A stretch of DNA of 64,000 nt from Thermoanaerobaculia bacterium (GTDB lineage Bacteria; Acidobacteriota; Thermoanaerobaculia; Multivoradales; JAGPDF01), in NCBI GenBank assembly GCA_048500095.1, contig JASNYQ010000003.1, positions 77,510-141,509 on the forward strand. Reading direction: 5' to 3'. Below, in pieces: positions 673-43,606 of the stretch. The notes under the pieces were generated by a model. It searched no databases, had not been told where the DNA came from, and saw nothing but the letters and a program-made list of their open reading frames with translations. The translations under genes were made by a program, and so were the position numbers. Position 1 is the stretch's first letter; the number at the start of each line of letters is the position of its first letter.

Positions 673-2516
673 GGGGACTCCTCGAAGCTGCGCACGACGA
701 GCAGCGGCGCGTCGCCGGTGCGCGAGACCAGGCGGCCGGCGATGCCGTCGAGCGCGACCTCGCCGGCCCCCTTCGGGAGCGGCACGCCGAGCACCAGCAG
801 ATCGTGGCCGCCGGCCAGGGCGGCGAGAATCTCCTCCTCGGTGGCGCCGAGCCCGAGGCGCGTCTCGGTCGCCACCCCGAGCGGCTCGAGGGTGCGCGCG
901 CTCGCCTGCAGGAAGCGCTCGGCCTGGGCGCGGGCGACGGCGGGGCTCGACTCGGGGAGCACCGTGAGCACCGTGACGCCGGCCCCGAGATGGCGCACGA
1001 GGCGGCCGGTGAACGCCACGTCCTCCTTGCCCGGCTCGCCGACCGCGGCGCAGACCAGCACGCGAGCGGGGAGCGGACGCGGGCCGCGCACCAACAGCAG
1101 GTGGTGGTCGCCCGAGGCGAGCAGGCTCTCGGCGAGCGGGGTGCCCCGCCCCGCGGGGGCGCCCGCGATCACGAGGTCGGGCCCGGTGAGCCGGGCGGCC
1201 TCCGGCACCGCCGCCACCGCGCCACCGCGCGCCGGGCGGAAGGTGAGCTCGCCGAGGCCGCGCCCGAGCCGCTCGCGGGCGGTCGCCTCGTCGAGTCCGG
1301 CCAGGATCACTGCCAGCCGGGCGTGCGTGCGCCGGGCGAGCTCGCCGGCGAAGGCGACCGCCTCGAGCCCTTCCGCCGAGGGCTCGGCGAGGAGCAGGAA
1401 CTGGAGACCCGGGTGGGCGAGGGCGTGGAGGCGGCGCACCGCGACGCGGACCGGATCGCCGGGGGCGAGGGGCAGCTTCCGGGCCTCGTGCGGCGGCCGG
1501 CTGGCGACCACCGCGAAGGCGCCCGCCCCGAACGGCACCGGCGGGGCGATCGCGCGCACCCCCACGAACGGCGGCAGCCGCAGCCGCAGATGCTCGAAGG
1601 CGCCCGCGAAGGAGCAGCTCTCGACCGTGCCCGTGCCCAGGACCGGGAGCGCCCCTGCCTCCTGCTCGCCGAGCAGGGCGACGTCCTCGGGGCGGAACAG
1701 GACCTGCACCCGCCGGCGCGCCGGCTCGGACTCCCCGCGGTGCTCGAGCGGGAAGTCGACGGGGCCGATGCGGACCCCCTGCTCGGTCGCCTCGCCCACC
1801 AGGAGGTTGGCGGCGCCGAGGAAGGTGGCCACGAACTCCGTCTGCGGGCGCAGGTAGAGCTCGCGCGGCGGCCCCACCTCGACCAGCCGGCCGAGCGCCA
1901 TCACCGCGATCCGGTCGCCGAGCGCGAACGCCTCCTCCTGGTCGTGGGTCACGAACAGGGTGGCGATGCCGAGCTCGCGCTGGATCTCGCGCAGGCTGCG
2001 GCGTAGCTCGGTGCGGATGCGGGCGTCGAGGGCGCCGAACGGCTCGTCGAGGAGCAGCACCTCGGGCCGGTGGGCCAGCGCGCGGGCGAGCGCCACCCGC
2101 TGCTGCTGGCCGCCGGAGAGCTGCCGCGGCAACCGCTTGCCGAGGCCCGCGAGGCCGACCAGCTCGAGCAGCTCCTCGACCCGGTGGCGGCGCTCGGCGC
2201 GCGCCACGCCGCGCACCGCGAGCGCGAAGCCGACGTTCTCGGCCACCGTCATGCCGCGGAAGAGGGCGTAGCTCTGGAAGACGAAGCCGGCGCCGCGCGC
2301 CTGGGGGGGGAGCTCCGAGACGTCGCGGCCGTGCAGGAAGACGCGTCCCCGGTCGGCCGCGAGCAGGCCGGCGATGATCCGCAGCACCGTGCTCTTGCCG
2401 CTGCCGGAGGGTCCGAGCAGCACGCAGAGCTCGCCCGCCGGCAGCTCGAGCGAGAAGTCGGAGACGACGGGATGCCCGTCGTAGAGCTTCGCGAGGCCTT
2501 CGAGGCGGATCGACAC
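669..2516 (-). CDS. ABC transporter ATP-binding protein (CysA/PotA-like, TOBE-type domain) fused to two C-terminal universal-stress-protein-like domains
   Basis: 615-aa ORF. It has Walker A GPSGSGKST, signature LSGGQQQRVALARAL and Walker B LLLDEPFGALD. A TOBE-like beta segment follows (VQVLFRPEDVALL...). The C-terminus carries two USP-like repeats ending DLVIAGAP...HHLLLVR and DLLVLGVP...APLLVVR. Confidence 0.85.
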   Translation of the reverse strand: MSIRLEGLAKLYDGHPVVSDFSLELPAGELCVLLGPSGSGKSTVLRIIAGLLAADRGRVFLHGRDVSELPPQARGAGFVFQSYALFRGMTVAENVGFALAVRGVARAERRHRVEELLELVGLAGLGKRLPRQLSGGQQQRVALARALAHRPEVLLLDEPFGALDARIRTELRRSLREIQRELGIATLFVTHDQEEAFALGDRIAVMALGRLVEVGPPRELYLRPQTEFVATFLGAANLLVGEATEQGVRIGPVDFPLEHRGESEPARRRVQVLFRPEDVALLGEQEAGALPVLGTGTVESCSFAGAFEHLRLRLPPFVGVRAIAPPVPFGAGAFAVVASRPPHEARKLPLAPGDPVRVAVRRLHALAHPGLQFLLLAEPSAEGLEAVAFAGELARRTHARLAVILAGLDEATARERLGRGLGELTFRPARGGAVAAVPEAARLTGPDLVIAGAPAGRGTPLAESLLASGDHHLLLVRGPRPLPARVLVCAAVGEPGKEDVAFTGRLVRHLGAGVTVLTVLPESSPAVARAQAERFLQASARTLEPLGVATETRLGLGATEEEILAALAGGHDLLVLGVPLPKGAGEVALDGIAGRLVSRTGDAPLLVVRSFEESP

Positions 2517-2586
2517 CGGGCGCTCCCGTCCCGGAGCCTATCCGGCGGGAGGACCTCCTGTCAGGCGAGCGGAAGAGCGGAGACGG

Positions 2587-2612
2587 CGAGGGCCCCGTCG
2601 CCGGGGCCCTCG
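2587..2612 (-). terminator. GC-rich hairpin downstream of the metallopeptidase gene (possible terminator, no U-tract)
   Basis: Perfect 11-bp stem cgagggccccg / cggggccctcg (2587-2597 / 2602-2612) with a 4-nt loop, 26 nt after the stop at 2638. Confidence 0.3.
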
Positions 2613-2637
2613 GGGTGCGGGCGGGAGGAGCCGGATC

Positions 2638-3330
2638 TCAGTCGCGGCGGCCGCCGAGCAGGCCGGCGCGGAAGAGGAAGTAGAGCAGCGTGAGCAGGGT
2701 CGAGATCGCGGCCGCGACGTAGGTGAGGGCGGCGGCGTTGAGCACCCGGTCCATCCCCTCCCGCTCCTGCGGCATCACGATCCCCTGGGCGACCGCCAGC
2801 TGCTTGGCGCGGGCCGAGGCGTCGAACTCCACCGGCAGGGTGACGATCTGGAAGAGGAGCACGGCCGAGAAGAGCACGGCGCCGAAGAGGACCATGTTCA
2901 CCGAGGAGAGGAAGATCCCGAAGACCATCACCAGGTAGCCGAGCGTCGAGCCGATGTTGGCGGTCGGCACCAGCAGCGAGCGCAGCGCCAGCGGCCCGTA
3001 CTTCGTGGCGTGCTGGATGGCGTGGCCGGCCTCGTGGCAGGCGACGCCGACGGCGGCGATCGAGGGCACGCCGTAGACCTGCTCGGAGAGCGCCAGCGTC
3101 TTGGTCATCGGGTTGTAGTGGTCGGTCAGCATCCCCCGGTGGGCGACCACCTTCACGTCCCGGATGCCGGCGCTCGCCAGCAGGCGCTCGGCCGCCTCGG
3201 CGCCGGTCAGGCCGGTGGCCACGCGCACCTTGGAGTACTTGTTGAAGGCGCTCTTGGTGCGGAAGCTCGCCCAGAGCGAGAGCAGCAGGGCCGGGGCGAG
3301 GAAGACGAAGTAGATCGGGTCGAACATCAT
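2638..3330 (-). CDS. YugP-type neutral zinc metallopeptidase (Zn_peptidase_2 family membrane protein)
   Basis: Real start taken at MMFDPIYF (ATGATG at 3330-3325). HEAGHAIQH zinc motif and hydrophobic N- and C-terminal helices. The 285-aa upstream extension of track ORF 2638..4188 is R/P/A-rich and was rejected. Confidence 0.85.
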   Translation of the reverse strand: MMFDPIYFVFLAPALLLSLWASFRTKSAFNKYSKVRVATGLTGAEAAERLLASAGIRDVKVVAHRGMLTDHYNPMTKTLALSEQVYGVPSIAAVGVACHEAGHAIQHATKYGPLALRSLLVPTANIGSTLGYLVMVFGIFLSSVNMVLFGAVLFSAVLLFQIVTLPVEFDASARAKQLAVAQGIVMPQEREGMDRVLNAAALTYVAAAISTLLTLLYFLFRAGLLGGRRD

Positions 3331-3494
3331 GGCGTCGGGTACCTCCGAGTCACCCTGGGGAACGGGGCCGGGGGAGCGGATATTCCGCGCCGCCGGCCGG
3401 CGCCGGGCGGGTCCTTCCGGGACCCCTCCCTCGCCGCATTCTACGTGGCCCGCCGCGGGGCGGATCGCGGGGGCGCGCGGCGCCTGCCGCCCCC

Positions 3495-6532: not shown

Positions 6533-7675
6533 TCAACCGGCACGGCGGGGGCGGCCGCCCTGGGCGGCGCCCGCGGGGCCCGGGGCGGCGAGCTCGGTGT
6601 TCGGCTGCTTGATCCGCGCCGACTCGTCGAGGCCGGAGACGATCTCGATCCGGATCCCGTCCGAGAGGCCGACCTCCACCGGCCGCTTCTCGAAGAGCTG
6701 CTCGCCGACCTCGACCTCGACGAAGGGCTTGCCGTCCTCGAACTGGAGCAGGCTCTCGTCGATCGCCAGCACGTCGTCGCGGCGGTCGAGGACGATGTCG
6801 GCGTTGGCGCTGTAGTTGGCGCGCAGGAAGAGGCCGGACTGCGGCGCGACGGCGGCCCGGATCTCGAACTGGATGGCGCCGCTGTCCTCGACCCCCTTGG
6901 GCGCGATGTGCTCGAGCGTGGCCTCGAAGGTGGCCCGCTCGATGGCGCCGATGGTCAGCAGCAGCTGCATGCCGGTGCGGATCTTGCCGACCTCCGACTC
7001 GTCGACCTTCCCCTTGAAGATCATGTCGTCCATGTCGGCGACGGTGGCGATGGTGGTGCCCTCGTTGAAGGTGTTCGCCTCGATCACCGAGCGGCCGAGC
7101 TCGACCGGCACTTCGAGCACCATGCCGGAGACGGTGGCGCGCACCAGGGTGTTGGTGGAGGTGGCGAGCTTGCCGGTCGTCCCCTTCTCGATGATGTCGA
7201 GGTTGTCGCGGGCGGCGGCGAGCTCCTCGCGCGCGGTGCGCAGCGCGATCTCGTACTGGTCGAGCTGGGCGCGGGAGACCGTCCCGTCGGCGAAGAGCGC
7301 GCGGTAGCGCCCGTGGTCGGCCTCCGCCTGCTCGAGCGCGATCTTGGCGCGCTCCACGCGGCTCTGGGCGGAGTTGAGGTTGACCATGTTCGGCACCACC
7401 CGCACCCGCGCCACGAGGTCGCCGGCCTTCACCAGCTGCCCCGCCTCGACGTGCAGCTGGTCGAGGATCCCGGAGACCTGCGGCTTGATCGCGACCTCCT
7501 GCCGGGGGACGACGGCGCCGGTGGCGACCGCCTTCTTGAGGATCGTCGAGCGCACCGGCGCCTCGGTGCGGAAGACCACCGGCGGCTTCTGCGAGCGCTT
7601 GTAGAGCAGGTAGCCGGAGCCGCCGACGGCGCCGAGGAAGAGGAGGGCGAGCAGGATACCGAAGAGCTTCTTCAT
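6533..7675 (-). CDS. Efflux periplasmic adaptor subunit (HlyD/MacA family)
   Basis: Start at [13 protein letters not shown] (ATG 7675-7673), which is a signal anchor. Biotinyl-lipoyl-like hairpin ([23 protein letters not shown]), a coiled-coil segment and beta-barrel domains. Last gene of the ABC efflux operon. Confidence 0.9.
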
Positions 7676-7677
7676 GG

Positions 7678-8952
<1,275 letters not shown>

Positions 8953-8959
8953 CGCGGGC

Positions 8960-10192
8960 TCATTCGTCGCGCAGCGCCTCGATCGGGCGGATGGCGGCGG
9001 CGCGGCGGGCGGGGAAGAAGCCGGCGAGCGCGCCGGCCACGACCAGCAGCAGGGTGGCCGAGAGGGCGACGCCGAGGTCGACCTGCGGGCTGCGGAAGAA
9101 GTCGGCCTCGGGCAGCGCGCGAGCGAGCCCCTCGAGGGTGAAGACGCCGAGCACGAGCCCGGCGTAGCCGGCGATGGCGGTGATCAGCACCGTCTCCTCG
9201 AGCACCAAACGGACCACCGAGAAGGGGGTGGCGCCGACCGCCTTGCGGATCCCGATCTCGCGCGTCCGCTCCTTGACCGCGATCATCATGATGTTCGAGA
9301 CCCCGACCACGCCGGCGACCAGGGTGCCGATGCCGACCACCCAGATGAACGCCCGGATCCCGGCCATGAGCGAGGCGAAGCGCTGGAAGTTCTCGACGTT
9401 GTTGGTGACGAACAGGGCGCGCGGGTCGGCGGGGTCGAAGAGGTGGCGGTTGGCGAGCAGCTCCTTGACCGAGAGCTCCATCTCCTGGCTCTCCTCGAGC
9501 GTCGCGTCGCCGGTGGTGAAGAGGATCTGGGCCAGCCGGTCGCGGCCGCCGAAGGCGCGCTGGGCGGTGGAGACCGGCACGTAGACGAGCTCGCGCTCCT
9601 GCTCGGAGCCGTCGTCGTCGAACACGCCGACGACCTGGAAGACGACGCCGTTGATCTCGATCTCGCGGCCGATCGCCGGGCTCTTGCCGAAGAGCGCCTC
9701 CGCGACGAGGGTGCCGATCACCGCGCTCTTGCGGAACTCGCGCTGGTCGAGCTCGTTGAGGAAGCGGCCCTGGCGGACCAGCGTCTTCTCGATGAACTGG
9801 TGGCCCGGGTGGACCGCCCGCACGCTGAAGTTCCCGCTCTCGTCGCGGTAGCGCACGATGGTCGAGCCGCGGATGAAGGCCCGGCCGCTCGAGTGCTCGA
9901 CGCCGGGGACGCGGTCGCGCACCGTGTCGTAGTCGCGGGTGTCGAACTGCACGTCGCGCCCCGGGCGCATCCCCTGGTGCGGCAGGCTGGTGCGGCCGGC
10001 GCGCACGAAGATCGAGTTCGTGGCGTCGTCCCGGAACTGGTACTCGACCCCCTGCTGAAGGCCCGTCCCCGAGCCCAGCAGGACGACCAGCATGAAGATC
10101 CCCCACGCCACCGAGAAGCCGGTGAGCGCGGTCCGCAGCTTGTTGCGGCGGACGGTGTCGAGGATCTCCTGCCAGAGGTCGAAGTCGATCAT
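8960..10192 (-). CDS. ABC transporter permease, MacB/FtsX family (paralog of 7678..8952)
   Basis: 410 aa with the same architecture. KERTREIGIRKAVGA motif. 4-nt overlap with the upstream ATPase gene. Confidence 0.9.
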   Translation of the reverse strand: MIDFDLWQEILDTVRRNKLRTALTGFSVAWGIFMLVVLLGSGTGLQQGVEYQFRDDATNSIFVRAGRTSLPHQGMRPGRDVQFDTRDYDTVRDRVPGVEHSSGRAFIRGSTIVRYRDESGNFSVRAVHPGHQFIEKTLVRQGRFLNELDQREFRKSAVIGTLVAEALFGKSPAIGREIEINGVVFQVVGVFDDDGSEQERELVYVPVSTAQRAFGGRDRLAQILFTTGDATLEESQEMELSVKELLANRHLFDPADPRALFVTNNVENFQRFASLMAGIRAFIWVVGIGTLVAGVVGVSNIMMIAVKERTREIGIRKAVGATPFSVVRLVLEETVLITAIAGYAGLVLGVFTLEGLARALPEADFFRSPQVDLGVALSATLLLVVAGALAGFFPARRAAAIRPIEALRDE

Positions 10193-10938: not shown

Positions 10939-11056
10939 GGTCGCTCTTCGGGCCGCCCCGGGGCGGTCCTCTCCCCAGGGGCGGGTGGCCCGTCTCCCGG
11001 TTCTACGGCCGGAGGCGGGAAATGGTTGCCCCCGGGGCCCCCTGGGGTGGGAGTGG

Positions 11057-12427
11057 TCAGTGGCCGCCCGCGACCGGGGGGCCGATGAGGGCGACGAGCT
11101 CGTCGCGCTTGGCGGCCATGAGCTCGGGGGTGGCGGCCTCGCAGACCAGGCGCAGCAGCGGCTCGGTGTTCGAGGGGCGGACGTTGCACCACCAGTCGGG
11201 GTACTGGATCGTGATCCCGTCGAGGTAGTCGATCTCGGCGTCGGCGTAGCGCGCCGCGAGCTGGCGGATCATCCCCTCCTTGTCCTCGACCTCGAAGTTG
11301 GTCTCCGGGGTCTTGGCGTAGCGGTGGAGGGGAGCGACGAGCTCGGACATCCGCTTGCCGGAGCCCCAGAGGAGGTTGAGCACCTCGACGACCGCCAGCA
11401 CCGCGCAGTCGGCGTAGTAGTTGTCCCGGAAGTAGTAGTGGCCGGCGAGCTCGCCGCCGAAGATGCCGGCGTGCTGGCGCAGGGTCGCCTTCATGAACGA
11501 GTGGCCGACCCGCTCGCGGACCGGGATCCCGCCCTGCTCGCGGATGTACTCGGCCACCGCGCGCGAGGAGCGCAGGTCGTAGAGGACGTGCTTGCCCGGC
11601 TCGCGGGAGAGGAGCTCGCCGCCGATCAAGCCCGTGATCAGGTCGGAGCCGATCGGCTCGCCGGTCTCGTCGACGAACGCCGAGCGGTCGTAGTCGCCGT
11701 CGCAGGAGACGCCGAGGTCGGCCCCGGTCTCGCGCACCTTGGCCATCAGGTCGCGGAGGTTCTCGAGCACCAGCGGGTTCGCCTCGTGGTTGGGGAAGGA
11801 GCCGTCGAGCTCGAAGTAGAGCGGAAGGATGTCGATCCCCATCGCCTCGAAGATCGGCCGGTCGATCGTCCCCATGCCGTTGGCGGCGTCGATCACCACC
11901 TTGAGCGGCCGCGCCCCGGCCGGGCGGCGCAGGAACGAGAGCACGTGCGCCTGGTAGGCGGCGAAGACGTCGGCGGTGGAGACGGAGCCGGGCGTCGCGG
12001 CGCGCGGCAGGTCCCCCTCGGCCACGCTCTTCTCGAGGAGCGGAATCCCGTGGTCCCCCGACACCGGCCGCGCCTCGTGCTTGCTGAACTTGAGGCCGTT
12101 GTACTGGGCCGGGTTGTGGGAGGCGGTGACCTGCACCCCGCCGGCCGCCTGCAGGTGGCCGATCGCGAAGTAGTTCATCGGCGTGGTGGCGAGGCCGATG
12201 TCGACGACGTCGAGCCCGGCGGCGGTCAGGCCCTCGATCAGGGCCGCGGTGAGCGGCACCGAGGAAGGCCGCATGTCGCGCGAGACGACCACCTTCGTCC
12301 CCCCGTGCGCGCGGTCCTCCGCGTCGAGCAGGTGGGAGAAGGCCACCCCGATGTCGCCGGCGATCGCCTCGTCGAGCTGGGTCGGGTAGATGCCGCGGAC
12401 GTCGTACGCCTTGTAGATACCGGCCAT
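11057..12427 (-). CDS. Phosphomannomutase/phosphoglucomutase (alpha-D-phosphohexomutase family)
   Basis: Start at MAGIYKAYDVRGIY (ATG 12427-12425). Active-site loop TASHNPAQYNGLK and metal-binding DGDYDR. The N-terminal extension of track ORF 11057..12982 was rejected. Confidence 0.92.
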   Translation of the reverse strand: MAGIYKAYDVRGIYPTQLDEAIAGDIGVAFSHLLDAEDRAHGGTKVVVSRDMRPSSVPLTAALIEGLTAAGLDVVDIGLATTPMNYFAIGHLQAAGGVQVTASHNPAQYNGLKFSKHEARPVSGDHGIPLLEKSVAEGDLPRAATPGSVSTADVFAAYQAHVLSFLRRPAGARPLKVVIDAANGMGTIDRPIFEAMGIDILPLYFELDGSFPNHEANPLVLENLRDLMAKVRETGADLGVSCDGDYDRSAFVDETGEPIGSDLITGLIGGELLSREPGKHVLYDLRSSRAVAEYIREQGGIPVRERVGHSFMKATLRQHAGIFGGELAGHYYFRDNYYADCAVLAVVEVLNLLWGSGKRMSELVAPLHRYAKTPETNFEVEDKEGMIRQLAARYADAEIDYLDGITIQYPDWWCNVRPSNTEPLLRLVCEAATPELMAAKRDELVALIGPPVAGGH

Positions 12428-12544
12428 GGTCGATCCTCGTCGGGAACCGGACGGGGCAGGCCGCCCGGGACCTGTGAGGTTATCAGCCCGCACCCGGACC
12501 GCGCCCGGAACCGGCCCGCCGGCCGACCGCGGGGCGCGAGACCG

Positions 12545-12846
12545 CCAGGCCAGGTCCCTCCCCTCCAAAGGCATGGAGGCCGCCAGCGCTCCCCCCGCCG
12601 GTCTCCGCCAGCTCGACCCGCTCCCCCACGAGCCCCGCCGCCGGCCTCGCCAAGCCGGCCTCCAGCCACACCCTTCGACACCGCTTCGCCACCCACCTGC
12701 TCGAGCCGAGCGACGACCTCCGCGCTGTCCAGGAGCTGCGCGGTCACCGCGACCTCGCGACCACCATGATCCACACCCACACCCTGAATCGCGGGGAGCG
12801 CGCCGTTCGCAGCCCGACCGGCGACCTCGGAGCACCGCCAGACTAG
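12545..12846 (+). pseudogene. Remnant of an integron-integrase-type (IntI-like) tyrosine recombinase, C-terminal ~70-100 codons only
   Basis: Own translation of the frame ending at TAG 12844-12846 gives [64 protein letters not shown]. This matches box II plus the NRG..V.SP tail typical of IntI proteins. The catalytic Tyr position reads His (cac). There is no start codon, upstream similarity (LPSKG.., RQLDP..) is in another frame, and the N-terminal two thirds are missing. The 5' limit is approximate. Confidence 0.6.
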
Positions 12847-12978
12847 ACGGCAGACCCCGTCGTGTTTGCCGCCGCCCGGCGGCTCGTGTACCATCGCCCA
12901 AGCTTCTGGAGATAAATGACTTCGGTGCCACGAGCCGCCAGCCACCGCGCCAGTTTCGACGGCCCTTTCTGCCGTCTA
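12844..12978. repeat. Nested long-range inverted repeat immediately after the integrase remnant
   Basis: Outer arms tagacggcaga (12844-12854) / tctgccgtcta (12968-12978) are 11/11 complementary. Next come ccgtcg (12857-12862) / cgacgg (12957-12962). The inner arms ggcggctcgtg (12878-12888) / cacgagccgcc (12929-12939) are 11/11 complementary, around an AT-richer 40-nt loop. Confidence 0.5.
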
Positions 12979-13043
12979 ACATCGCCCAAAGCCGTCGGCC
13001 GGTGTGATCGAATTACAAGTTGGGGCGACCCGAGGGAAGAACG

Positions 13044-13970
13044 ATGACGCGAGACTGGGAGAACGCTTTTTCCTTTTGGGCGCAGTCACCCAGCAACTCG
13101 GAGCAAGAGCGCACTGAGCGGGTTATCCGAGCCATCCGCACCGCCGTCAGCAACAGCCCCAAGTTGCAGGCGAGAAAGACTTTGGTCTTTGTGCAGGGCT
13201 CATTTCGTAACCGCGTCAATGTTCGTCGGGAGAGCGACGTCGATGTCGGTGTGATGCTCTACGAGTGCTTCCTCGCTCAGTATCCGAGCGGGAAGGCAGA
13301 CGCCGATTTTGGCAACTTCGACGCTAACTACCCGTTCTCTCAGTTCAAGGACGAACTTGAGGGGGCGCTCGTCGCGCACTTCGGTCGCGCGGCGGTGAAA
13401 CGCAGCAACAAGGCATTCGATATCAAGGCCGCACAAGCGCAGGTTGAAGCCGATGTCGTGCCACTGTTCGAGTTCAGGCAGTATTGGGAGAATGGGAGTT
13501 ACCGTGCCGGCGTAGCACTGATCCCAGACAACAGTAGCCGGCGTATCGTGAACTACCCTGAACGCCTCGTTGACTACTGGCCGCACACGCCTCTTCACTA
13601 CGAAAACGGTGTTTCTAAGAATGCCGTGACCCAACGGCGCTTCAAAGGCATGGTGCGCATCCTGAAGAAGCTGCGGATCGAACTGGCGGACGCAGGAAAC
13701 ACCCACGCTGCAAGCGTTCCTGGCTACCTGGCTGAGTGCCTGGTTTGGAACGCTCCAGACTGGTGCTTCGGGCACGCCACATGGGAGGAGCGCGTCCAGT
13801 CGGTACTGTGTTTCCTCTGGCAGAACACGAGGGAGCCGTCCCTTTGCACGGGGTGGTGCGAGGTCGATGCAATCAAGTACCTATTCCATGGCTCGCAGCC
13901 GTGGACGCGCGACCAGGCGCACGCCTTCGTCAACGAGGCATGGGACTTTGTCGGGGTGAAGCCCGTATGA
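13044..13970 (+). CDS. CBASS cyclic oligonucleotide synthase (CD-NTase / SMODS nucleotidyltransferase)
   Basis: 308 aa from ATG 13044, with GAGGGAAG 5 nt upstream. Pol-beta-type NTase signature G52-S53 (VFVQGSFRNR), D65-x-D67 (ESDVDVGV) and a third Asp in VEADVVPLF (D137). Helical C-terminal lobe. ATGA overlap with the next gene. Lower GC than the flanks. Confidence 0.85.
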   Translation: MTRDWENAFSFWAQSPSNSEQERTERVIRAIRTAVSNSPKLQARKTLVFVQGSFRNRVNVRRESDVDVGVMLYECFLAQYPSGKADADFGNFDANYPFSQFKDELEGALVAHFGRAAVKRSNKAFDIKAAQAQVEADVVPLFEFRQYWENGSYRAGVALIPDNSSRRIVNYPERLVDYWPHTPLHYENGVSKNAVTQRRFKGMVRILKKLRIELADAGNTHAASVPGYLAECLVWNAPDWCFGHATWEERVQSVLCFLWQNTREPSLCTGWCEVDAIKYLFHGSQPWTRDQAHAFVNEAWDFVGVKPV

Positions 13971-14626
13971 AGCTCGAGCGTCTCCAAATCACCGCCTTTG
14001 TCATCCTTGCGGCGGCCATCTGGCTGGCAGTACTCCTGTTCCAGGGTACGCCGGTCGAGTGGGTGCACGCCCAGCCATTCGGTATTGTGGTGAGCGCCTT
14101 GGTCGGTGTCGGCGTGCTTCTGGAGTTCGTGCTGTGGCGGCAGGCGTGGCTACACGGTTGGTTTATTGACCGCCCCGACCTTCGTGGTACGTGGCGCGTC
14201 GAGCTGCAGTCGAGCTACGGGCGGCCTGAGACCAACGAGCGTGTGCCGATGATCGTCTGCTACATGGGCGTGAAGCAGACCCTTTCGAAGCTCCAGATGC
14301 ATTTGATGACTCCCGAATCAGAGTCTTGGCTTGTCGCTGACCACGTTCGGCCGTCCCCCAGCGGCCACGGCTTCCAAGTGATTGGGGTCTATTCCAATGA
14401 ACCTAACGTTCATCTCCGACACGAGCGGATCAGCGAGATGCACCAAGGGGCCATCATCGTCGAAACTCATGGGCCTAGCCTCCGGCCAACGACGCTAACA
14501 GCGAAGTACTGGACTGACCGCCAGACCACAGGAACAATGGAGTTCACCGTCCGCATCAACGACCTGTGCACGCGATTCGAAGACGCTCAAACCTCACTCT
14601 CGGCGCACGAAGGCAAGAATGCCTGA
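13967..14626 (+). CDS. CBASS effector, 2-TM + beta-strand-rich C-terminal domain (Cap15 / S-2TMbeta-like)
   Basis: 219 aa from ATG 13967. Two N-terminal TM helices (ITAFVILAAAIWLAVLLF, FGIVVSALVGVGVLLEFVLW). A beta-rich domain follows, starting LRGTWRVEL and ending AKYWTDRQTTGTMEFTV, as in SMODS-associated 2TM-beta effectors. Confidence 0.75.
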   Translation: MKLERLQITAFVILAAAIWLAVLLFQGTPVEWVHAQPFGIVVSALVGVGVLLEFVLWRQAWLHGWFIDRPDLRGTWRVELQSSYGRPETNERVPMIVCYMGVKQTLSKLQMHLMTPESESWLVADHVRPSPSGHGFQVIGVYSNEPNVHLRHERISEMHQGAIIVETHGPSLRPTTLTAKYWTDRQTTGTMEFTVRINDLCTRFEDAQTSLSAHEGKNA

Positions 14627-14653
14627 CTCGACGGCGTGGGCGCGTCACGTGCG

Positions 14654-14713
14654 TCCTAACAACAGCATGCAGCGGCCGGCGCTCCGCGCCGCCGCTGATG
14701 CTGAGCGTTAGGC
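14654..14713 (+). other. attC-like integron recombination site (cassette boundary)
   Basis: TCCTAAC (R''-like, 14654-14660) and GTTAGGC (R', matches GTTRRRY, 14707-14713). Stem pairs are cctaac/gttagg, cagcat/atgctg and cagcggc/gccgctg, with an unpaired spacer (aa vs agc), one extrahelical G (14670) and a 14-nt apical region. It lies 28 nt after the Cap15-like stop and 13 nt before the next ATG. Confidence 0.6.
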
Positions 14714-14725
14714 GCCAGAGGAACC

Positions 14726-15811
14726 ATGGCCCTTTCACGACCTCTTCTTGAACGACTGATCGCAGCGAAGTACCTCTTAAGGGCGGCGCGCGAAACGGTA
14801 GCCACCCACAGTCCGTACCGCGCAGGACGAGCAGTTCTTCATCTTCAGGACGCTGCCGAGATGCTTCTGCGAGTTGCTGCTGAACACCTTCATGCGCAGG
14901 TTTCGGAGAAGAGCGCCTTCGATCAGCTCGTCGAGGCTGTGGTGAAAGCCGCTCCAGTCCCACTCACGCATCGCACCGCGCTGAATCAACTCAACAAGGC
15001 ACGAGTTGCCTTCAAGCATTTCGGCCTCGAACCAAAGCCAGAGGACGTTGCAAAGGTGCTGGCAGACATGGACAGTTTCTTTCCAGAGACCGTGCAGTCG
15101 ATCCTTGGCGCCGACCTCGCTGAACTCAGTCTTAGGTCGCTGGTCGGCCACAGGCGGACCGAGAACTGGCTTGCAAAGGCAGAGCAAGCCCTCGCCGCAG
15201 GGGACTTCGATGCCTCCATCAATGCCTCGGCGGTCGCATTCGCGGTGATTCGCCATCACTGCGCTGGCACACACGACTTCTCCCGGCTGGATCCCTCTGG
15301 TCGTTTCAGGGAAGGCGAGTTGCGCGCGGCCCTTGAGGCAGTAGAGCAGAAGTTCAAGGCGCTAGAGGCGGACCTTGACCTGTTTGCGCTCGGCGTTGAC
15401 CCCGCCGAGTACAGGCGATTCAGAAGGTACACGCCACGCGCGAGGCTTACGATGGCTGCGACCGTTATTCTCCAGAGGGGAATGAGCGAGACGCCGGTAG
15501 TAGGAGCCGATGAAGCGGCGTTTTGTGCCCGGTTTACGCTAGACGCGGCACTCGCAATGCAGTCAAACATCCTCCCGCCACGCTGGCCGATTCCGCGACC
15601 GGACAAAGCGGTCCGCGTTGTTCGCGAATGCGATCTCGTCGTCTGGCCTGGGGAGGGCGCGGAAGTGATCCGCCAGGTGAGCGTCGGTGAGCAACTGGCG
15701 GCCTTCTCAGGAGGCAGGCAATTGGACGGGCACATACAAGTCGTCGAATCTGGAGACGGCGCGTTCGTCCCGGCAGACGCGGTGGAGGAAGGTGGGTCCG
15801 CTGGCGCCTGA
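14726..15811 (+). CDS. Hypothetical protein; helical N-terminal domain with HEPN-like Rx4H motif, second helical domain, SH3-like C-terminus (no confident family assignment)
   Basis: 361-aa ORF with ATG 13 nt after the attC-like GTTAGGC. LNKARVAFKHFG (R93-x4-H98, nt 15002-15019). The C-terminal ~60 aa are beta-rich (VVRECDLVVWPGEGAEVIRQVSVGEQL...GHIQVVESGDGAFVPADAV). The composition looks coding and is not R/P-rich. Confidence 0.7.
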   Translation: MALSRPLLERLIAAKYLLRAARETVATHSPYRAGRAVLHLQDAAEMLLRVAAEHLHAQVSEKSAFDQLVEAVVKAAPVPLTHRTALNQLNKARVAFKHFGLEPKPEDVAKVLADMDSFFPETVQSILGADLAELSLRSLVGHRRTENWLAKAEQALAAGDFDASINASAVAFAVIRHHCAGTHDFSRLDPSGRFREGELRAALEAVEQKFKALEADLDLFALGVDPAEYRRFRRYTPRARLTMAATVILQRGMSETPVVGADEAAFCARFTLDAALAMQSNILPPRWPIPRPDKAVRVVRECDLVVWPGEGAEVIRQVSVGEQLAAFSGGRQLDGHIQVVESGDGAFVPADAVEEGGSAGA

Positions 15812-15921
15812 CAGCTATCAGGCCCCCTCTTGTCAAGGGGTAGGCGATCCCCAGGGCGGGCGTTGAGCCAGCCGAGCTGGTTGAAGGACTGCCTCCCTAC
15901 CTGATCGTCGCTGACTTCGCT

Positions 15922-16211
15922 TCACGTTCTGGTGCGGCGCTTCTGGCGCATGCCGAGGGCGTGGCCGGGGGCGAAGGCGATGCTCTCGTCCTCGCAGAGA
16001 TCGGCGAGCCAGTACCAGCAGAAGATGCACTCGCAGCCGACGACGAGGCCGTCGCGGAAGGGCGCCGGTGCCTCGAGCACGGCCCCGGGTTGCACGGCAG
16101 ATAGCGATGCAGGACAATCTGACCGGAGCCGTCGAGCAGACAGAGGTAGAGGGCGCGCCCGTGGAGATCGACGCCGCAGGCGAACGCGTGGGACCGGGAA
16201 TGGAATCGCAT
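15922..16211 (-). pseudogene. IS110-family transposase, N-terminal fragment with frameshift (truncated)
   Basis: From ATG 16211 the translation is MRFHSRSHAFACGVDLHGRALYLCLLDGSGQIVLHRYLPCNPGP. After a frameshift near 16080 it continues VLEAPAPFRDGLVVGCECIFCWYWLADLCEDESIAFAPGHALGMRQ, then a stop at 15922-15924. This is the DEDD_Tnp_IS110 N-domain pattern, and the C-terminal catalytic half is absent. Weak degenerate similarity may continue to about 15815. Confidence 0.7.
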
Positions 16212-16304
16212 GCAGTGCCTCCTCTGGCTTGCGTGAGTGCCACCGCGAGAGCTACCGCGTGGGTAGCCCCAGAGGGGGCCTGCATGGGCTTCAAGCCGAT
16301 GAGG

Positions 16305-16351
16305 CCGACCGTCGCTTGCGGCGCCCGCAGCTCATCGGCAGGGCGTTAGGC
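16305..16351 (+). other. Partial/degenerate attC-like site (right half with R' GTTAGGC)
   Basis: GTTAGGC at 16345-16351, 17 nt before the next start codon. L-box-like pair gccgatgag (16305-16313) / ctcatcggc (16331-16339). No matching RYYYAAC partner on the left, where IS110-derived sequence begins. Confidence 0.35.
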
Positions 16352-16367
16352 GGCGTTACGATCGGTT

Positions 16368-16718
16368 GTGGACTTCGCCTACTCCGCAGGGCTGCTGATG
16401 TCTCTGCTTGGTGGTGCTGCCTCATTGGTCTGTCTATTCAGCGCAGCGGTGCTGCGTTCCAGCGCGGTTGCAGCGCGAATGCGCGTGGCGGGCTCAGCGC
16501 TTCTCGCTCTTGGGTTCGTTTCCTGTGTAGTTGCGCTCGTTGTCCACCGTGTCTGGGGTCATGGCGCCCGGAGCCCCGAGCCGATGCACCTCCGGCAGTT
16601 TCTCGGCAGCCATCCCGCTTTCGTCATTGTGGGCTGCTTGCTCCTCGCGGGGTTCCTACTGATTCTCGTCGCGCGTGCGAAGAGCGCCCGGCACGAGCGC
16701 TCTCGAGACGCCGCCTGA
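16368..16718 (+). CDS. Small membrane protein (3 predicted TM helices), hypothetical
   Basis: 116 aa with a GTG start. Hydrophobic segments GLLMSLLGGAASLVCLFSAAVL, SALLALGFVSCVVALVV and AFVIVGCLLLAGFLLILV, then a basic tail. Confidence 0.5.
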   Translation: MDFAYSAGLLMSLLGGAASLVCLFSAAVLRSSAVAARMRVAGSALLALGFVSCVVALVVHRVWGHGARSPEPMHLRQFLGSHPAFVIVGCLLLAGFLLILVARAKSARHERSRDAA

Positions 16719-16935
16719 GAGACCGCGGAGGAACCGGTCAGTGGAGGGACGCGGGGGAGCGCCGGGGGCGACCCGGGCGCGGAGAGCGCGGCCACCGCGA
16801 AAGGGGATTCGCCAGGTCCACCGCAATCGTCGTATCGTGGCCCGCGATTCCTGAAGGAGAAGGCCACTCTCGACCGCTTCGTGGGAAGCCACTTTGCGTC
16901 GACAGCAGGTCGGGTCATTCGAGGAGAGATCGGTC

Positions 16936-17652
16936 ATGACCGTTGGAAACGAATTGCAGCAGGGCATCGCGCAGTCCGTCGCCCGCGCCCGGTGGGTGAC
17001 GATCCTCCTCGCCGGTTGCGTCTCGGGCGCCGCCCTCGGCGTCCTCACGGGTGTCCGTCAACTCGACCTGCTGCATCGTGTTGTGGCTGGCGAGGTCATT
17101 TCGGAGTCCGAAGCGAGCTGGAACGACACGCTCTACGGCGGCATCGGGCTCGTCCAGACGGCCATGTTCGTGGCCTGTAGCGTCCTCTGGCTCGTGTGGC
17201 TCAAGAGAGCCTATGCAAACCTCCTTCTCGTGGGCACCCGCACGGCTCGCTTCTCTCCCGGCTGGGCGGTTGGCTACTGGTTCGTCCCGGTGGTGAACCT
17301 GGTACGTCCCTACCAGGTCATGAAGGACCTTTCCGTGCGAAGTGCGCAACGCAACGAGCACGACGGCATGATGGCGGCGGGGACCACGACGCTCGTGGGC
17401 TTGTGGTGGTTCGCCCACCTGGCATCCGGGATCGCCGGTCGGGTCTTCTTCCGCCAGGCGCTCGGTGCTGACGAAGTGCAGGGGTTCATCGCTTTGACCC
17501 AGGCAGGACTCGTCACCGACGCCGCAACGATCCTCTCTGGTGTGCTCGCGCTGGTCATGATCCGCGGCATCACCCGGAGTCAGAGCGCGTGGCCGAACGA
17601 GGCGAATGCCGCTGCAGTGGTCCCACCATCGATCGAGCCCAGTTCCATCTAG
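16936..17652 (+). CDS. DUF4328 domain-containing membrane protein
   Basis: Start at MTVGNEL (ATG 16936), with GAGGAGAG 7 nt upstream. The motif FSPGWAVGYWFVPVVNLVRPYQVMKDL is typical of DUF4328. Multiple TM segments. Confidence 0.75.
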   Translation: MTVGNELQQGIAQSVARARWVTILLAGCVSGAALGVLTGVRQLDLLHRVVAGEVISESEASWNDTLYGGIGLVQTAMFVACSVLWLVWLKRAYANLLLVGTRTARFSPGWAVGYWFVPVVNLVRPYQVMKDLSVRSAQRNEHDGMMAAGTTTLVGLWWFAHLASGIAGRVFFRQALGADEVQGFIALTQAGLVTDAATILSGVLALVMIRGITRSQSAWPNEANAAAVVPPSIEPSSI

Positions 17653-18100: not shown

Positions 18101-18203
18101 TGCCGGACGCCGCGCAGCGCTCGATCGGCAGGCCGGCTGGCGCTGCGACCGCGGCAGGCCTCGAGTGCACGATGCGGCCACGGCACCTCGGAAGGAGAGC
18201 GAC

Positions 18204-18650
18204 ATGGGAACGGCCACGAAGACCCCGGAGCGACTCAGTGTGTTCGGCGATCCGGCGGTGTCGCCGACCGACGACGAGGTCCGCGCCGCTCTCGGGCCGG
18301 CCGTCGCCGCCTGGATGGCGCTGATCGAGCACGTCACCCGCACCTACCCGCCCGCGAGCCACGCCTGGAACTTCGCGGGCGCCAGATACGGCTGGTCGCT
18401 CCGCCTGCGGCAGGCAGAGAGGGTCGTGCTCTACCTCATCCCGCAGCGAGGCCGGTTCCTCGTCGGCATCGTCCTGGGCGCCAGCGCGGTGGCGGCCTCC
18501 CGGGAGGCCGACCTTCCCGCGGATGTGCGGCGCACGATCGCGGAGGCGCCGCGATACAGCGAAGGCACCGGTGTTCGCCTCGCCGTCTCGTCGGAGGACG
18601 AGCTCGCGGCGATCACGGCCCTGGCCGCCCTCAAGATGGCGCGGCGTTGA
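18204..18650 (+). CDS. DUF3788 domain-containing protein
   Basis: ATG 18204 preceded by GGAAGGAGAG. WNFAGARYGWSLRLRQAERVVLYLIPQRGRFLVGIVLG matches my recollection of the DUF3788 pattern. Confidence 0.7.
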   Translation: MGTATKTPERLSVFGDPAVSPTDDEVRAALGPAVAAWMALIEHVTRTYPPASHAWNFAGARYGWSLRLRQAERVVLYLIPQRGRFLVGIVLGASAVAASREADLPADVRRTIAEAPRYSEGTGVRLAVSSEDELAAITALAALKMARR

Positions 18651-28878: not shown

Positions 28879-28905
28879 GGGCGCGTCGCGACGCGCCCCT
28901 ACAGG
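28879..28905. repeat. REP-like palindromic repeat, copy 1
   Basis: gggcgcgtcgcgacgcgcccctacagg. The core gggcgcgtcgcgacgcgccc is a perfect 20-nt palindrome. Confidence 0.7.
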
Positions 28906-28967
28906 TTCGGGGCACGGTTGGCGGTGGGAGCTGTCGGGACGGAACCGCGGGTGCTGGCCTCGCCCGC

Positions 28968-28998
28968 GTAGGGGCGCGTCGCGACGCGCCCCTACAGG
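28968..28998. repeat. REP-like palindromic repeat, copy 2
   Basis: gtaggggcgcgtcgcgacgcgcccctac is a perfect 28-nt palindrome (28968-28995). 27 nt are identical to copy 1 (28972-28998). It lies 11 nt downstream of the hppA stop and could act as its terminator hairpin. Confidence 0.7.
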
Positions 28999-42282: not shown

Positions 42283-42290
42283 ACCGTCAG

Positions 42291-42375
42291 CAATCCGGTG
42301 ACAGTTTACTTATTGCCTTCGCGGTGGTCCTGGGGCAGGGCGCGTCGGGGCAATAAGTAAACTGTCACCCGATTG
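42291..42375. terminator. Long AT-richer inverted repeat between convergent genes (bidirectional terminator or protein-binding palindrome)
   Basis: The arms caatccggtgacagtttacttattgcc (42291-42317) and ggcaataagtaaactgtcacccgattg (42349-42375) are 26/27 complementary, with a 31-nt loop. The right arm covers the stop and last codons of the M16 gene. Confidence 0.5.
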
Positions 42376-43606
42376 CGGCGGGCAGGCCGAGGGTGACGGC
42401 GAGGCGCGACGGGTCGAGGTGCCGGCAGGCGGCGGCCACCTCGTCGCGCGTGACCGCCCGGAGCCGGGCCGTGACCCAGGCCGGGTCGTCCAACGGCTGG
42501 CCGGTGAGCGCCGCGGCCGCGAGCAGGTCGGCCCACTGCCGCGCCGTCTCGCGGCGGAACGGCTCGCGCCCGAGCAGGTAGGAGCGCGCCTCCTCGACCT
42601 CGTCCGCGGTCGGCCCTTCGGCGAAGAGCCGGGCCAGCTCCTCGCGCACCGCGGCCTCCGCCCGCGCCGCGGTGGCGGGCGAGGTCCCGACGTAGCAGAC
42701 GAGCCGGCCGCGGTCGCGCGCCGCGCCGGCGGCCGCCTCCGCCGAGGCGGCGTAGGCGAGCCCCTCCCGCTCGCGGATGCGGGTCGGGATGCGCCCGGCG
42801 AGGCCGCTGCCCGCGCCGAGGACGACCCCGAGCAGCTCGAGCGCCGGCAGCTCCGGGTCGTCGCGGTGGACGGTGAGGCGGCCGAGGTAGAGGTGGGCCT
42901 GGTCGAGGGCGCGGGTCGCGATCTCGCGGCGCGGCTCGGGGTCGCCCGGGGGCGGCGGGGGCTCCGGCGGCGCGCCCGACCCCGCCGGCAGCGCGGCGGC
43001 GAGCTCGGCCAGGCGGGTACCGACCCGCTCCTCGTCGATCGCCCCGGCCACGGTGAGCGCGCCCCCCCACCCGAGCGCGCGGCGGTGGTGGCGGGCGGCG
43101 TGGTCCGGGGTGAGCGCCGCGATCCCCGCGCTCGTCCCCTGGAGCGGCCGGCCGCGCGGGTGGGGGGCGTAGAGCTGGTCGAGGAAGGCGCGGCCGGTCG
43201 CGAGATCGGCCTGGTCGGCTTGGCTCGCGAGCTCCCCCTCCGCCTGGCGCCGCAGGAGGTCGCAGCGGTCGGCGGGGAAGGCCGGCTCGAGCAGGAGCTC
43301 GGCGAGCCAGTCGAGGGCGACCTCCCAGTCGCCGGCGAGCGCGTCGAGTGCTACCGCGTGCCCCTCGAAGCCGGCGAGCCCCTGGAGGAGCATGCCGCGG
43401 GCCTCGGTCTGCTCGGCCAGGGTGCGCCAGTCGCGGCGCCGGGTCCCTTCGGCGAGGAGCCGGCCCGCGAGGTAGCACTGGCCCGGGATCTCTTCCGAGC
43501 GCACGCCGCCGCGCAGCCAGGCGCGCACCGCCACCAGCGGCGCCCCCTCGACGCGGCGCACGCGCAGCGCCCAGCCGGGCGGTGCCGGGCTCACGGCAGC
43601 GACCAT
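42365..43606 (-). CDS. M16-family peptidase subunit lacking the HxxEH zinc motif (non-catalytic partner)
   Basis: Start at MVAAVSP (ATG 43606), overlapping the upstream M16 gene by 16 nt. Peptidase_M16/M16_C-like sequence with no HxxEH. Confidence 0.82.
   Translation of the reverse strand: MVAAVSPAPPGWALRVRRVEGAPLVAVRAWLRGGVRSEEIPGQCYLAGRLLAEGTRRRDWRTLAEQTEARGMLLQGLAGFEGHAVALDALAGDWEVALDWLAELLLEPAFPADRCDLLRRQAEGELASQADQADLATGRAFLDQLYAPHPRGRPLQGTSAGIAALTPDHAARHHRRALGWGGALTVAGAIDEERVGTRLAELAAALPAGSGAPPEPPPPPGDPEPRREIATRALDQAHLYLGRLTVHRDDPELPALELLGVVLGAGSGLAGRIPTRIREREGLAYAASAEAAAGAARDRGRLVCYVGTSPATAARAEAAVREELARLFAEGPTADEVEEARSYLLGREPFRRETARQWADLLAAAALTGQPLDDPAWVTARLRAVTRDEVAAACRHLDPSRLAVTLGLPAAIG

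Follow-up and report, generated by a model that had tools for sequence, protein, structure and literature searches.

Whether a lone gene that encodes an RNase-like motif inside an integron cassette serves as a defence effector, a toxin or something else is the question raised by a locus in a Thermoanaerobaculia bacterium (Acidobacteriota; assembly GCA_048500095.1). The gene is a 361-aa open reading frame (ORF) found downstream of a type I cyclic oligonucleotide-based antiphage signalling system (CBASS) in the window, the whole 64,000-nucleotide stretch of contig JASNYQ010000003.1 that was analysed (positions 77,510 to 141,509). An earlier reading of the letters alone (the original prediction) had described its product as an orphan with a HEPN-like R-x4-H motif and an SH3-like tail, and as a candidate toxin or defence protein. 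The interpretation favoured here, with a probability of roughly 55%, is that the gene encodes a self-contained, conditionally activated HEPN RNase in a one-gene integron cassette, acting in defence or as a conditional toxin; this judgement draws on sequence comparison, structure models and analogy to characterised systems. The gene moves as a cassette, without a conserved partner and mostly among defence genes and mobile elements.

The HEPN domain and its conserved motif

The N-terminal domain was placed in the HEPN family, at the level of the protein family as a whole, by profile comparison and structure modelling. The family consensus of this domain matched Pfam PF05168 with 32.5 bits (E = 1.1e-7) over profile positions 2–115 of 117. 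Individually, 14 of 25 close relatives (best E = 5.8e-7) and 8 of 53 diverse members matched the profile at the E limits used; P0003, with 26.5 bits, and P0009, with 30.1 bits, are relatives that exceeded its cut-off of 22 bits. In the Pfam/HMMER search that had been recommended with the original prediction, the family thus scored above the cut-off and the window protein itself below it.

An AlphaFold2 model was built from the alignment of 25 sequences (mean predicted local distance difference test score (pLDDT) 90.1; predicted template modelling score (pTM) 0.84). Five N-terminal helices were predicted (residues 5–26, 32–54, 65–75, 83–99, and 105–127), with a pLDDT of about 87–98 over residues 1–130, which agrees with the claim that the first ~125 residues are all-helical and HEPN-like. 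When the full model was searched against the PDB with Foldseek, this bundle was matched to the HEPN toxin of a HEPN-MNT pair (7ae8/7ae2) and to 1wwp and 1ylm, with target-normalised TM scores (TMt) of 0.41–0.63 and probabilities of 0.84–0.99. A HEPN-like helical bundle is thus what the proposed structure check returned.

The motif was located by translation: LNKARVAFKHFG occupies residues 89–100, which puts the Arg and the His at R93 and H98 as claimed. Across an alignment of 53 diverse members (24–58% identity to the query), the only invariant columns were D42, R93, K97 and H98. Both R93 and H98 were kept in 163 of the 169 relatives that cover the motif (96%), and this conservation among homologs, on which the HEPN call had been made to depend, is the pattern expected for a catalytic HEPN dyad. 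The invariant Lys (K97) directly before the His is an unusual feature.

Middle domain and SH3-like barrel

The second helical module noted earlier (WLAKAEQALAAGDFDASINASAVAFAVIRHH, residues 148–178) lies within a predicted helical domain, for which the model of the full protein gave helices and one beta-hairpin at residues 136–280. This domain was present in every family member and has conserved residues of its own (GHRRTEN around H142-R144, G223, Y229, F232, P237, and F266-C267-x2-F270). Modelled alone, it reached a pLDDT of 85. Nothing better than E~1 was returned when the isolated domain was searched against the PDB with Foldseek, and no Pfam family was matched. A tandem HEPN arrangement (Cas13-like, with two HEPN domains per chain) was considered and rejected. 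HHalign gave a probability of 0.2 for domain 1 against the middle domain, HEPN entries for the isolated middle domain stood at chance level in Foldseek (E 3.6–7.8, probability ≤0.09), and the middle domain has no conserved Rx4-6H in the 53-member alignment.

The SH3-like tail was also recovered in the model, as a beta-barrel with strands from residue 294 to residue 355. It was matched by Foldseek to bacterial SH3-like domains in the PDB (9ovi, TMt 0.77; 2krs, 0.66; 2kt8, 0.65; probability 1.00) and, in the BFVD viral library, to endolysin-type SH3 domains only; no Pfam sequence match was obtained. The fold is that of the SH3b domains of endolysins and cell-wall hydrolases (sequence identity 11–20%). 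Unlike those domains, the window barrel is fused to a HEPN protein. Neither a signal peptide nor a membrane segment is evident in that protein, which makes binding to the cell wall an unlikely role. The barrel is optional in the family: among 142 relatives complete through the middle domain, it was present in 107 (median 367 aa) and absent in 35 (median 299 aa).

Family size and distribution

The view of this protein as an orphan without a family was overturned. When 5.8 billion proteins were searched with a word index, 25 relatives came up, nearly all of them 356–377 aa long and aligning end to end at 34–58% identity. An exhaustive phmmer search of 1.84 billion representatives of 50%-identity clusters returned 1,692 matches at E≤1e-3, of which 770 were at E≤1e-10 and 92 at E≤1e-30, and so revealed a large, unnamed HEPN family. 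Every source name seen for its members was "hypothetical protein", a second word-indexed protein search gave no named member, and the window protein had no match in NCBIfam. The family reaches across Acidobacteriota, Pseudomonadota and Desulfobacterota, and more remote relatives occur in Actinomycetota. On plasmids of Embleya and Rhizobium, distant homologs were again isolated "hypothetical proteins". Species-representative genomes were scanned for further loci and yielded three only (the 53-member alignment was too diverse for use in a locus pattern search).

A true sequence relative was also identified among phage protein families. The unannotated phrog_37995 (PHROGs v4, "unknown function") was matched by the short-form member P0143 over positions 9–287 of 299 (6.8e-41) and by the window protein over positions 7–171 (2.2e-15). 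Its profile of 299 positions has the length of the short form, i.e., without the SH3-like tail. No relative was found among GenBank phage records with tblastn of P0143, and no family member was found in IMG/VR viral contigs scanned with patterns from the close relatives.

The ORF itself was confirmed as real, with its ATG start. The ATG at 14,726 is backed by full-length homologs of ~360 aa, which align over the first 45 residues (window positions 14,726–14,860), including the conserved R10 and D42. The sole NCBI entry (P0001, a 316-aa "hypothetical protein" from a Thermoanaerobaculia metagenome-assembled genome (MAG)) is 99% identical to the window protein, and its annotation begins 45 codons too far downstream; the earlier ATG is retained in the sister locus L011, described below. 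The window gene and the copies at L011–L014 show 11 differences (5 codons changed synonymously, 4 nonsynonymously), for which the ratio of nonsynonymous to synonymous substitution rates (dN/dS) is uninformative.

Genomic context of relatives

A survey of homolog contexts had been proposed, with housekeeping operons as the outcome that would speak against a defence role. The relatives were found in cassette arrays and among toxin-antitoxin (TA), insertion sequence (IS), conjugation and defence genes, with a small motif-dead subclade as the exception. The attC sites of these arrays were searched with a covariance model built from six sites of locus L009 and the window site. L009 is a typical cassette array, with an attC of 56–63 nt in each intergenic gap. 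The homolog lies in the order attC-ORF-attC at L009 and L010, and an attC lies just downstream of it at L019 and L027 and just upstream at L028; at L024, a 74-bit attC follows the gene by 30 nt, with five more downstream and one near the contig start. The number of attC-adjacent loci is a lower bound because the covariance model is narrow. The arrays at L009 (3115–4113 and others) and L024 also contain several further unannotated ORFs, and two radical S-adenosylmethionine (rSAM)/SPASM maturase genes lie upstream of the homolog at L024.

Other homologs lie close to mobile-element and TA genes. A ParE-like pair adjoins the gene at L001; a truncated Xer/integron-type recombinase, MazE and plasmid ParAB/RPA genes are nearby at L003; a zeta toxin is the neighbour at L008; conjugation genes are found at L032; and IS21 and IS630 transposases occur near homologs. 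A bulk scan of 66 neighbouring ORFs at 14 loci recovered PARIS AriAB (6.9e-139), PDC-S11, PDC-S31, a PD-T4-6-like kinase, TIR, SIR2, patatin, SNase, TumE, and AAA_21/DUF4435; these frequencies are raw, with no background rate set beside them. Neighbours that PADLOC labelled "pVip" were rejected as viperins, being rSAM/SPASM peptide maturases.

With neighbours that vary from one locus to the next and no conserved partner, the gene stands alone as a unit. The window cassette has the same one-gene layout, with 18 nt from the attC core to the ATG and a stop codon that overlaps the next R''-like box. A HEPN-MNT toxin-antitoxin pair was rejected as a description of the locus, since there is no MNT at any locus and the cassette holds one ORF. 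The nucleotidyltransferase upstream in the window is the CBASS CD-NTase, which belongs to a separate cassette and is absent in L011.

The motif-dead proteins P0023 and P0025, the two dyad-replaced relatives for which the context was examined, have R93, K97 and H98 replaced (...AAAAAFLAAG...). Their genes (L005/L006/L007, at 4274–5407 in L005, and L033, at 2345–3436) are in genomes of ~72% GC and have a fixed, housekeeping-like context of SurA-like, TP_methylase, the gene, a CbiA/ParA-like ATPase, and HATPase_c_4 with or without AlbA_2. From these contexts it looks as if genes with an intact catalytic motif are mobile and the motif-dead lineage is fixed in place, the latter as a domesticated derivative.

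Cassette boundaries and the sister locus

The features of the locus are listed in Table 1. The original prediction had placed the ORF in an attC-delimited slot; the upstream half of this claim held, with an intact attC closing the preceding CBASS cassette. Downstream, no intact attC was found, and attC-like half sites suggest a site split by an inserted element (element X).

Table 1. Positions of the features in and around the HEPN cassette (coordinates of the window)
Feature	Position	Strand	Basis or remark
Type I CBASS (neighbour cassette, not part of the gene): CD-NTase 13020–13970, Cap15-like 2TM effector 13961–14626	13020–14626	+	
Intact attC, R'' TCCTAAC ... R' GTTAGGC, closing the CBASS cassette	14654–14713	+	Covariance model; DNA fold
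Single cassette ORF, 361 aa (HEPN / helical domain / SH3-like)	14726–15811	+	ORF list; ATG start; TGA stop 15809–15811
N-terminal HEPN domain, residues ~5–127; R93-x4-H98 at nt 15002–15019; invariant D42, K97	14738–15106	+	Pfam, alignment, Foldseek
Middle helical domain, residues ~128–292, predicted five helices and one beta-hairpin	15107–15601	+	AlphaFold2 models; no recognisable relative
C-terminal SH3-like (bacterial SH3b-type) beta-barrel, residues ~293–355	15602–15808	+	Foldseek, PDB and BFVD
Putative R'' box GCCTGAC of the gene's own attC, overlapping the stop codon	15808–15814	+	One base from GCCTAAC, complement of R' GTTAGGC
Element X, decayed IS110/IS1111-family insertion sequence, ~480 bp	15815–16295	-	tblastn of stitched transposase peptide
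Putative 3' part of split attC: L''/L' stem GCCGATGAG...CTCATCGGC and R' GTTAGGC at 16345–16351	16296–16351	+	Sequence, fold

The upstream attC folded better than shuffled sequence (z = -4.15 and -4.54 on the two strands) and scored 64.8 bits (E = 3e-16) with the covariance model; this high score is partly by construction because the model includes the window site. No other significant attC was found in the window by the model, even with filters off across the lower-GC island described below. A strict scan for RYYYAAC...GTTRRRY returned nothing, missing the upstream site because its R'' box is TCCTAAC, and a relaxed scan and the covariance model were used instead.

The 5' boundary was fixed by comparison with L011, a 4.09-Mb contig of a related Thermoanaerobaculia MAG that carries a 99%-identical ORF. 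The two genomes have common flanks, PGM/PMM on the upstream side (97.4% identity) and DUF4328 with DUF3788 on the downstream side (95.7%). The upstream cassette of L011 differs: it encodes a 322-aa unknown protein and DUF4325 (STAS-like; 6954–9830 together), and the 76-nt attC that closes it is not that of the window. Identity between the two sequences begins at the GTTAGGC core, so the HEPN cassette starts at the G|TTAGGC crossover (14707/14708), 18 nt ahead of the ATG. Judged from the aligned sequences, such different cassettes in one and the same chromosomal place bear the mark of exchange by an integrase, and the locus between PGM/PMM and DUF4328 is a hotspot for defence-cassette swapping. 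Further cargo of L011 includes a 785-aa fusion of SIR2_2 and a protein kinase (PD-T4-6-like) downstream, at 11565–13922.

No integrase was found in the window by tblastn with two tyrosine recombinases from homolog loci, a search of low sensitivity, and no integron integrase was found among the genes called within 10 kb in L011. The locus looks CALIN-like, with a few clustered attC sites and no integrase. The region from ~12.9 to 17.8 kb, which holds the CBASS genes, the ORF and a few downstream genes, has a GC content of 58–66% vs. 70–78% in the background. A consensus scan of 12400–16500 for promoters and terminators found none.

The putative downstream half sites and element X

Neither a fold scan nor the covariance model detected an intact attC after the stop codon; the covariance model misses this site because it is split. 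The right flank of element X reads GCCGATGAG...CTCATCGGCAGGGC-GTTAGGC, i.e., ...CTCATCGGCAGGGCGTTAGGC ending at 16351, and the HEPN cassette would end at G 16345. The 3' stem alone folded at -18.3 kcal/mol. When element X was removed in silico, the putative R'' box paired with R' to give an attC-like hairpin of 72–76 nt at about -25 kcal/mol, with junctions that were picked post hoc for the best fold. These sequences are suggestive of a downstream attC split by element X.

Element X has 12-bp subterminal inverted repeats (CAGGCCCCCTCT at 15821–15832 and AGAGGGGGCCTG at 16270–16281, read from the sequence). On its minus strand, a frameshifted, truncated transposase N-terminus runs from ~16211 to 15925. 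A stitched 96-aa peptide was 44–49% identical to annotated IS110-family transposases (E down to 7e-27; tblastn, annotated plasmids), and Pfam gave no match for either the raw fragments or the stitched peptide. Two copies in L011 (~10955–11434 and ~14025–14668), 86–88% identical to each other, lie directly 3' of cassette ORFs, one after the HEPN gene and one after the SIR2-kinase gene. According to a passage in PMC11187229 (citing Post & Hall 2009 and Tetu & Holmes 2008), elements of the IS1111 group have subterminal inverted repeats and some of them target the attC sites of integron cassettes. The three copies, each apparently inside an attC, are consistent with an attC-targeting IS1111-type element that later decayed.

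Farther downstream, beyond the putative R' core at 16345–16351, a 116-aa ORF (16368–16718) that resembles a membrane protein and has no significant Pfam match could form the following cassette. It is followed by DUF4328 (16894–17652) and DUF3788 (18165–18650), both common to L011.

The neighbouring CBASS cassette and other features

The gene does directly follow the CBASS genes, as predicted; the effector ends ~100 nt upstream of the ORF. The CD-NTase matched the PADLOC Cyclase family (1.2e-107), and the effector matched PADLOC 2TM (1.3e-57) and Pfam Cap15_CD_rec (1.8e-12). The two genes make up a complete system, their coordinates overlap by 10 nt, and the pair ends in the intact 60-nt attC; being closed by an attC, the CBASS is itself packaged as an integron cassette. 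Its 5' boundary would lie somewhere in 12537–13019, where GCCGTCTAAC...GTTGGGG (~12968–13021) may be a degenerate site that neither folds nor scores.

Elsewhere in the window, two inverted repeats were noted. The first, at 42290–42376, has 28-nt, AT-rich arms (GCAATCCGGTGACAGTTTACTTATTGCC / GGCAATAAGTAAACTGTCACCCGATTGC) that are 96% complementary, with 31 nt between them, in a genome of ~70% GC. The second, at 28879–28991, has 35-nt arms (GGGCGCGTCGCGACGCGCCCCTAC...) that are 86% complementary, with 43 nt between them.

Proposed mechanism and its alternatives

When HEPN domains dimerise, their two Rx4-6H motifs come together into an RNase site that needs no metal, as summarised in PMC13043305 (with the review PMC7856873 cited therein). 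By analogy with this biology, the HEPN domains of two copies of the protein would dimerise, and their two Rx4H motifs would form one metal-independent RNA-cleaving site. An antitoxin would not fit in the cassette, so the protein would have to hold its own activity in check, and the parts that may do so are the middle helical domain, found in every member, and the SH3-like barrel where there is one. Either of these may also recognise the trigger (a phage protein or a nucleic acid, for example), and release by an infection cue would then lead to cleavage of cellular RNA (tRNA, rRNA or mRNA) and, through this, to growth arrest or abortive infection.

Several observations weigh against a HEPN RNase with a role in defence. 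The window protein on its own reached only 16.5 bits against PF05168 (E = 0.0098; residues 14–119, profile positions 8–111 of 117), under the gathering cut-off of 22. Foldseek E-values for the HEPN entries were weak (0.2–0.3), because the match list was dominated by the C-terminal barrel. Profile searches against PDB sequences, both full-length and with domain 1 alone, gave chance matches and no HEPN entry, and thus no experimentally studied HEPN to which the catalytic-type residues could be aligned one by one. The hydrophobic residue after the Arg, noticed in the window protein from the start, was found to be Val or Ile across the family, unlike the polar residue common in HEPN RNases. In PADLOC-DB v2.0 (2023), no family was matched by the window protein at E≤1. 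Integron arrays carry genes of many kinds, and the frequency of defence neighbours comes without a background comparison. Neither an integrase nor a promoter was found near the window cassette, and its expression is only presumed.

Three other explanations were weighed against the conditionally activated RNase. Some HEPN domains are non-catalytic or bind ligands, e.g., the C-terminal domain of kanamycin nucleotidyltransferase and sacsin. The window protein could likewise be a HEPN-fold non-nuclease, a sensor, adaptor or regulator in which the R/K/H/D cluster binds a nucleotide, an RNA end or a protein. The hydrophobic residue after the Arg and the invariant K97 beside H98, outside the canonical motif, would suit this reading, as would the persistence of the motif-dead lineage in a stable context, where the scaffold seems useful without the dyad. 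A catalytic dyad, however, predicts the exact R-x4-H spacing at the canonical place of the PF05168 profile together with 96% retention, and an effector would be more at home than a regulator in mobile, defence-rich surroundings; a non-nuclease is considered improbable. An addiction toxin is also judged unlikely. Here the HEPN RNase would stabilise the integron array or mobile element, with the role of antitoxin falling to an internal domain or to a small RNA or peptide that has escaped recognition. PF05168-type domains are the toxins of HEPN-MNT pairs, such toxins (7ae8/7ae2) are the best structural HEPN matches, several homologs adjoin TA components (ParE-like, MazE, zeta, TumE), and TA cassettes stabilise chromosomal integrons, according to PMC13108822. 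Yet neither MNT nor any other conserved neighbour was seen at any locus, the cassette is one ORF with no space for a second, and a stable toxin with a fused antitoxin cannot give classical post-segregational killing.

A role in the adjacent CBASS, as an accessory or as a second effector, is suggested by the gene's place on the same strand, 100 nt downstream of the Cap15-like effector. An attC separates the two, however, and the 99%-identical gene in L011 follows a non-CBASS cassette in a locus without a CD-NTase. Among the best 25 of the 64 PADLOC families matched by the neighbours scanned in bulk there was no CBASS family; a CD-NTase neighbour was seen at the window locus alone. This explanation was rejected on the intervening attC and the L011 gene without CBASS, and its probability is put close to nil.

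Relation to known systems

The HEPN RNase proposed here resembles known proteins in part. With the PF05168 HEPN-MNT toxins (7ae8/7ae2) it has in common the R-x4-H at the canonical position, and its N-terminal ~125 residues superpose on them with a TMt of 0.55–0.58. It differs in being without an MNT partner, in its greater length (~2.5 times longer), with C-terminal fusion to a unique helical domain and an SH3-like barrel, and in having Val/Ile after the Arg and an extra invariant Lys before the His. A closer likeness in logic may be HepS, a "HEPN solo" abortive-infection anticodon nuclease of the Gifsy-1 prophage that is opened by a phage tail-tip protein (PMC13043305). Like the window protein, HepS is a single-gene HEPN protein with an Rx4-6H motif, on a mobile element and without a co-occurring partner gene (PMC13043305), and the proposed logic of a constitutively present, auto-inhibited protein opened by a phage trigger would be the same. 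The vehicle is a prophage rather than an integron cassette, and the window protein has extra domains without a described HepS counterpart; the two were likened by description only, and no chain labelled HepS was among the 50 best Foldseek matches of the window model. Esos, a Vibrio integron cassette that encodes a HEPN-like domain only, protects against phage and halts growth on infection (bioRxiv 10.1101/2024.07.02.601686). It too was likened to the window gene by description only, its sequence not being found in the preprint or supplement.

HEPN effectors, solo HEPN defence proteins and integron defence cassettes are thus already known kinds. What is new is the large unnamed family, its architecture (HEPN, helical and optional SH3-like domains), and the evidence that it circulates in integron cassettes. 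A bolder proposal, offered tentatively and with the odds against it, is that the family is a widespread, unrecognised class of single-protein anti-phage RNases spread by integrons. In such a class, the middle domain would be a new sensor or auto-inhibitor that gates the HEPN site, the barrel would tune trigger specificity, and the motif-dead lineage would be a domesticated derivative with a different cellular role.

Natural swapping of defence cassettes at a single site is cleanly illustrated by this locus, as is, apparently, the disruption of an attC by an IS that seeks such sites. The family is large, unnamed and without a PADLOC model, and its gene is repeatedly a one-gene integron cassette near CBASS, SIR2-kinase, PARIS and TA genes. 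How solo HEPN proteins stay silent and are switched on is known for very few (e.g., HepS). If the gene does protect against phage, the family would be a compact, easily transferable addition to the defence cassettes borne by integrons and would bring with it a new regulatory domain.

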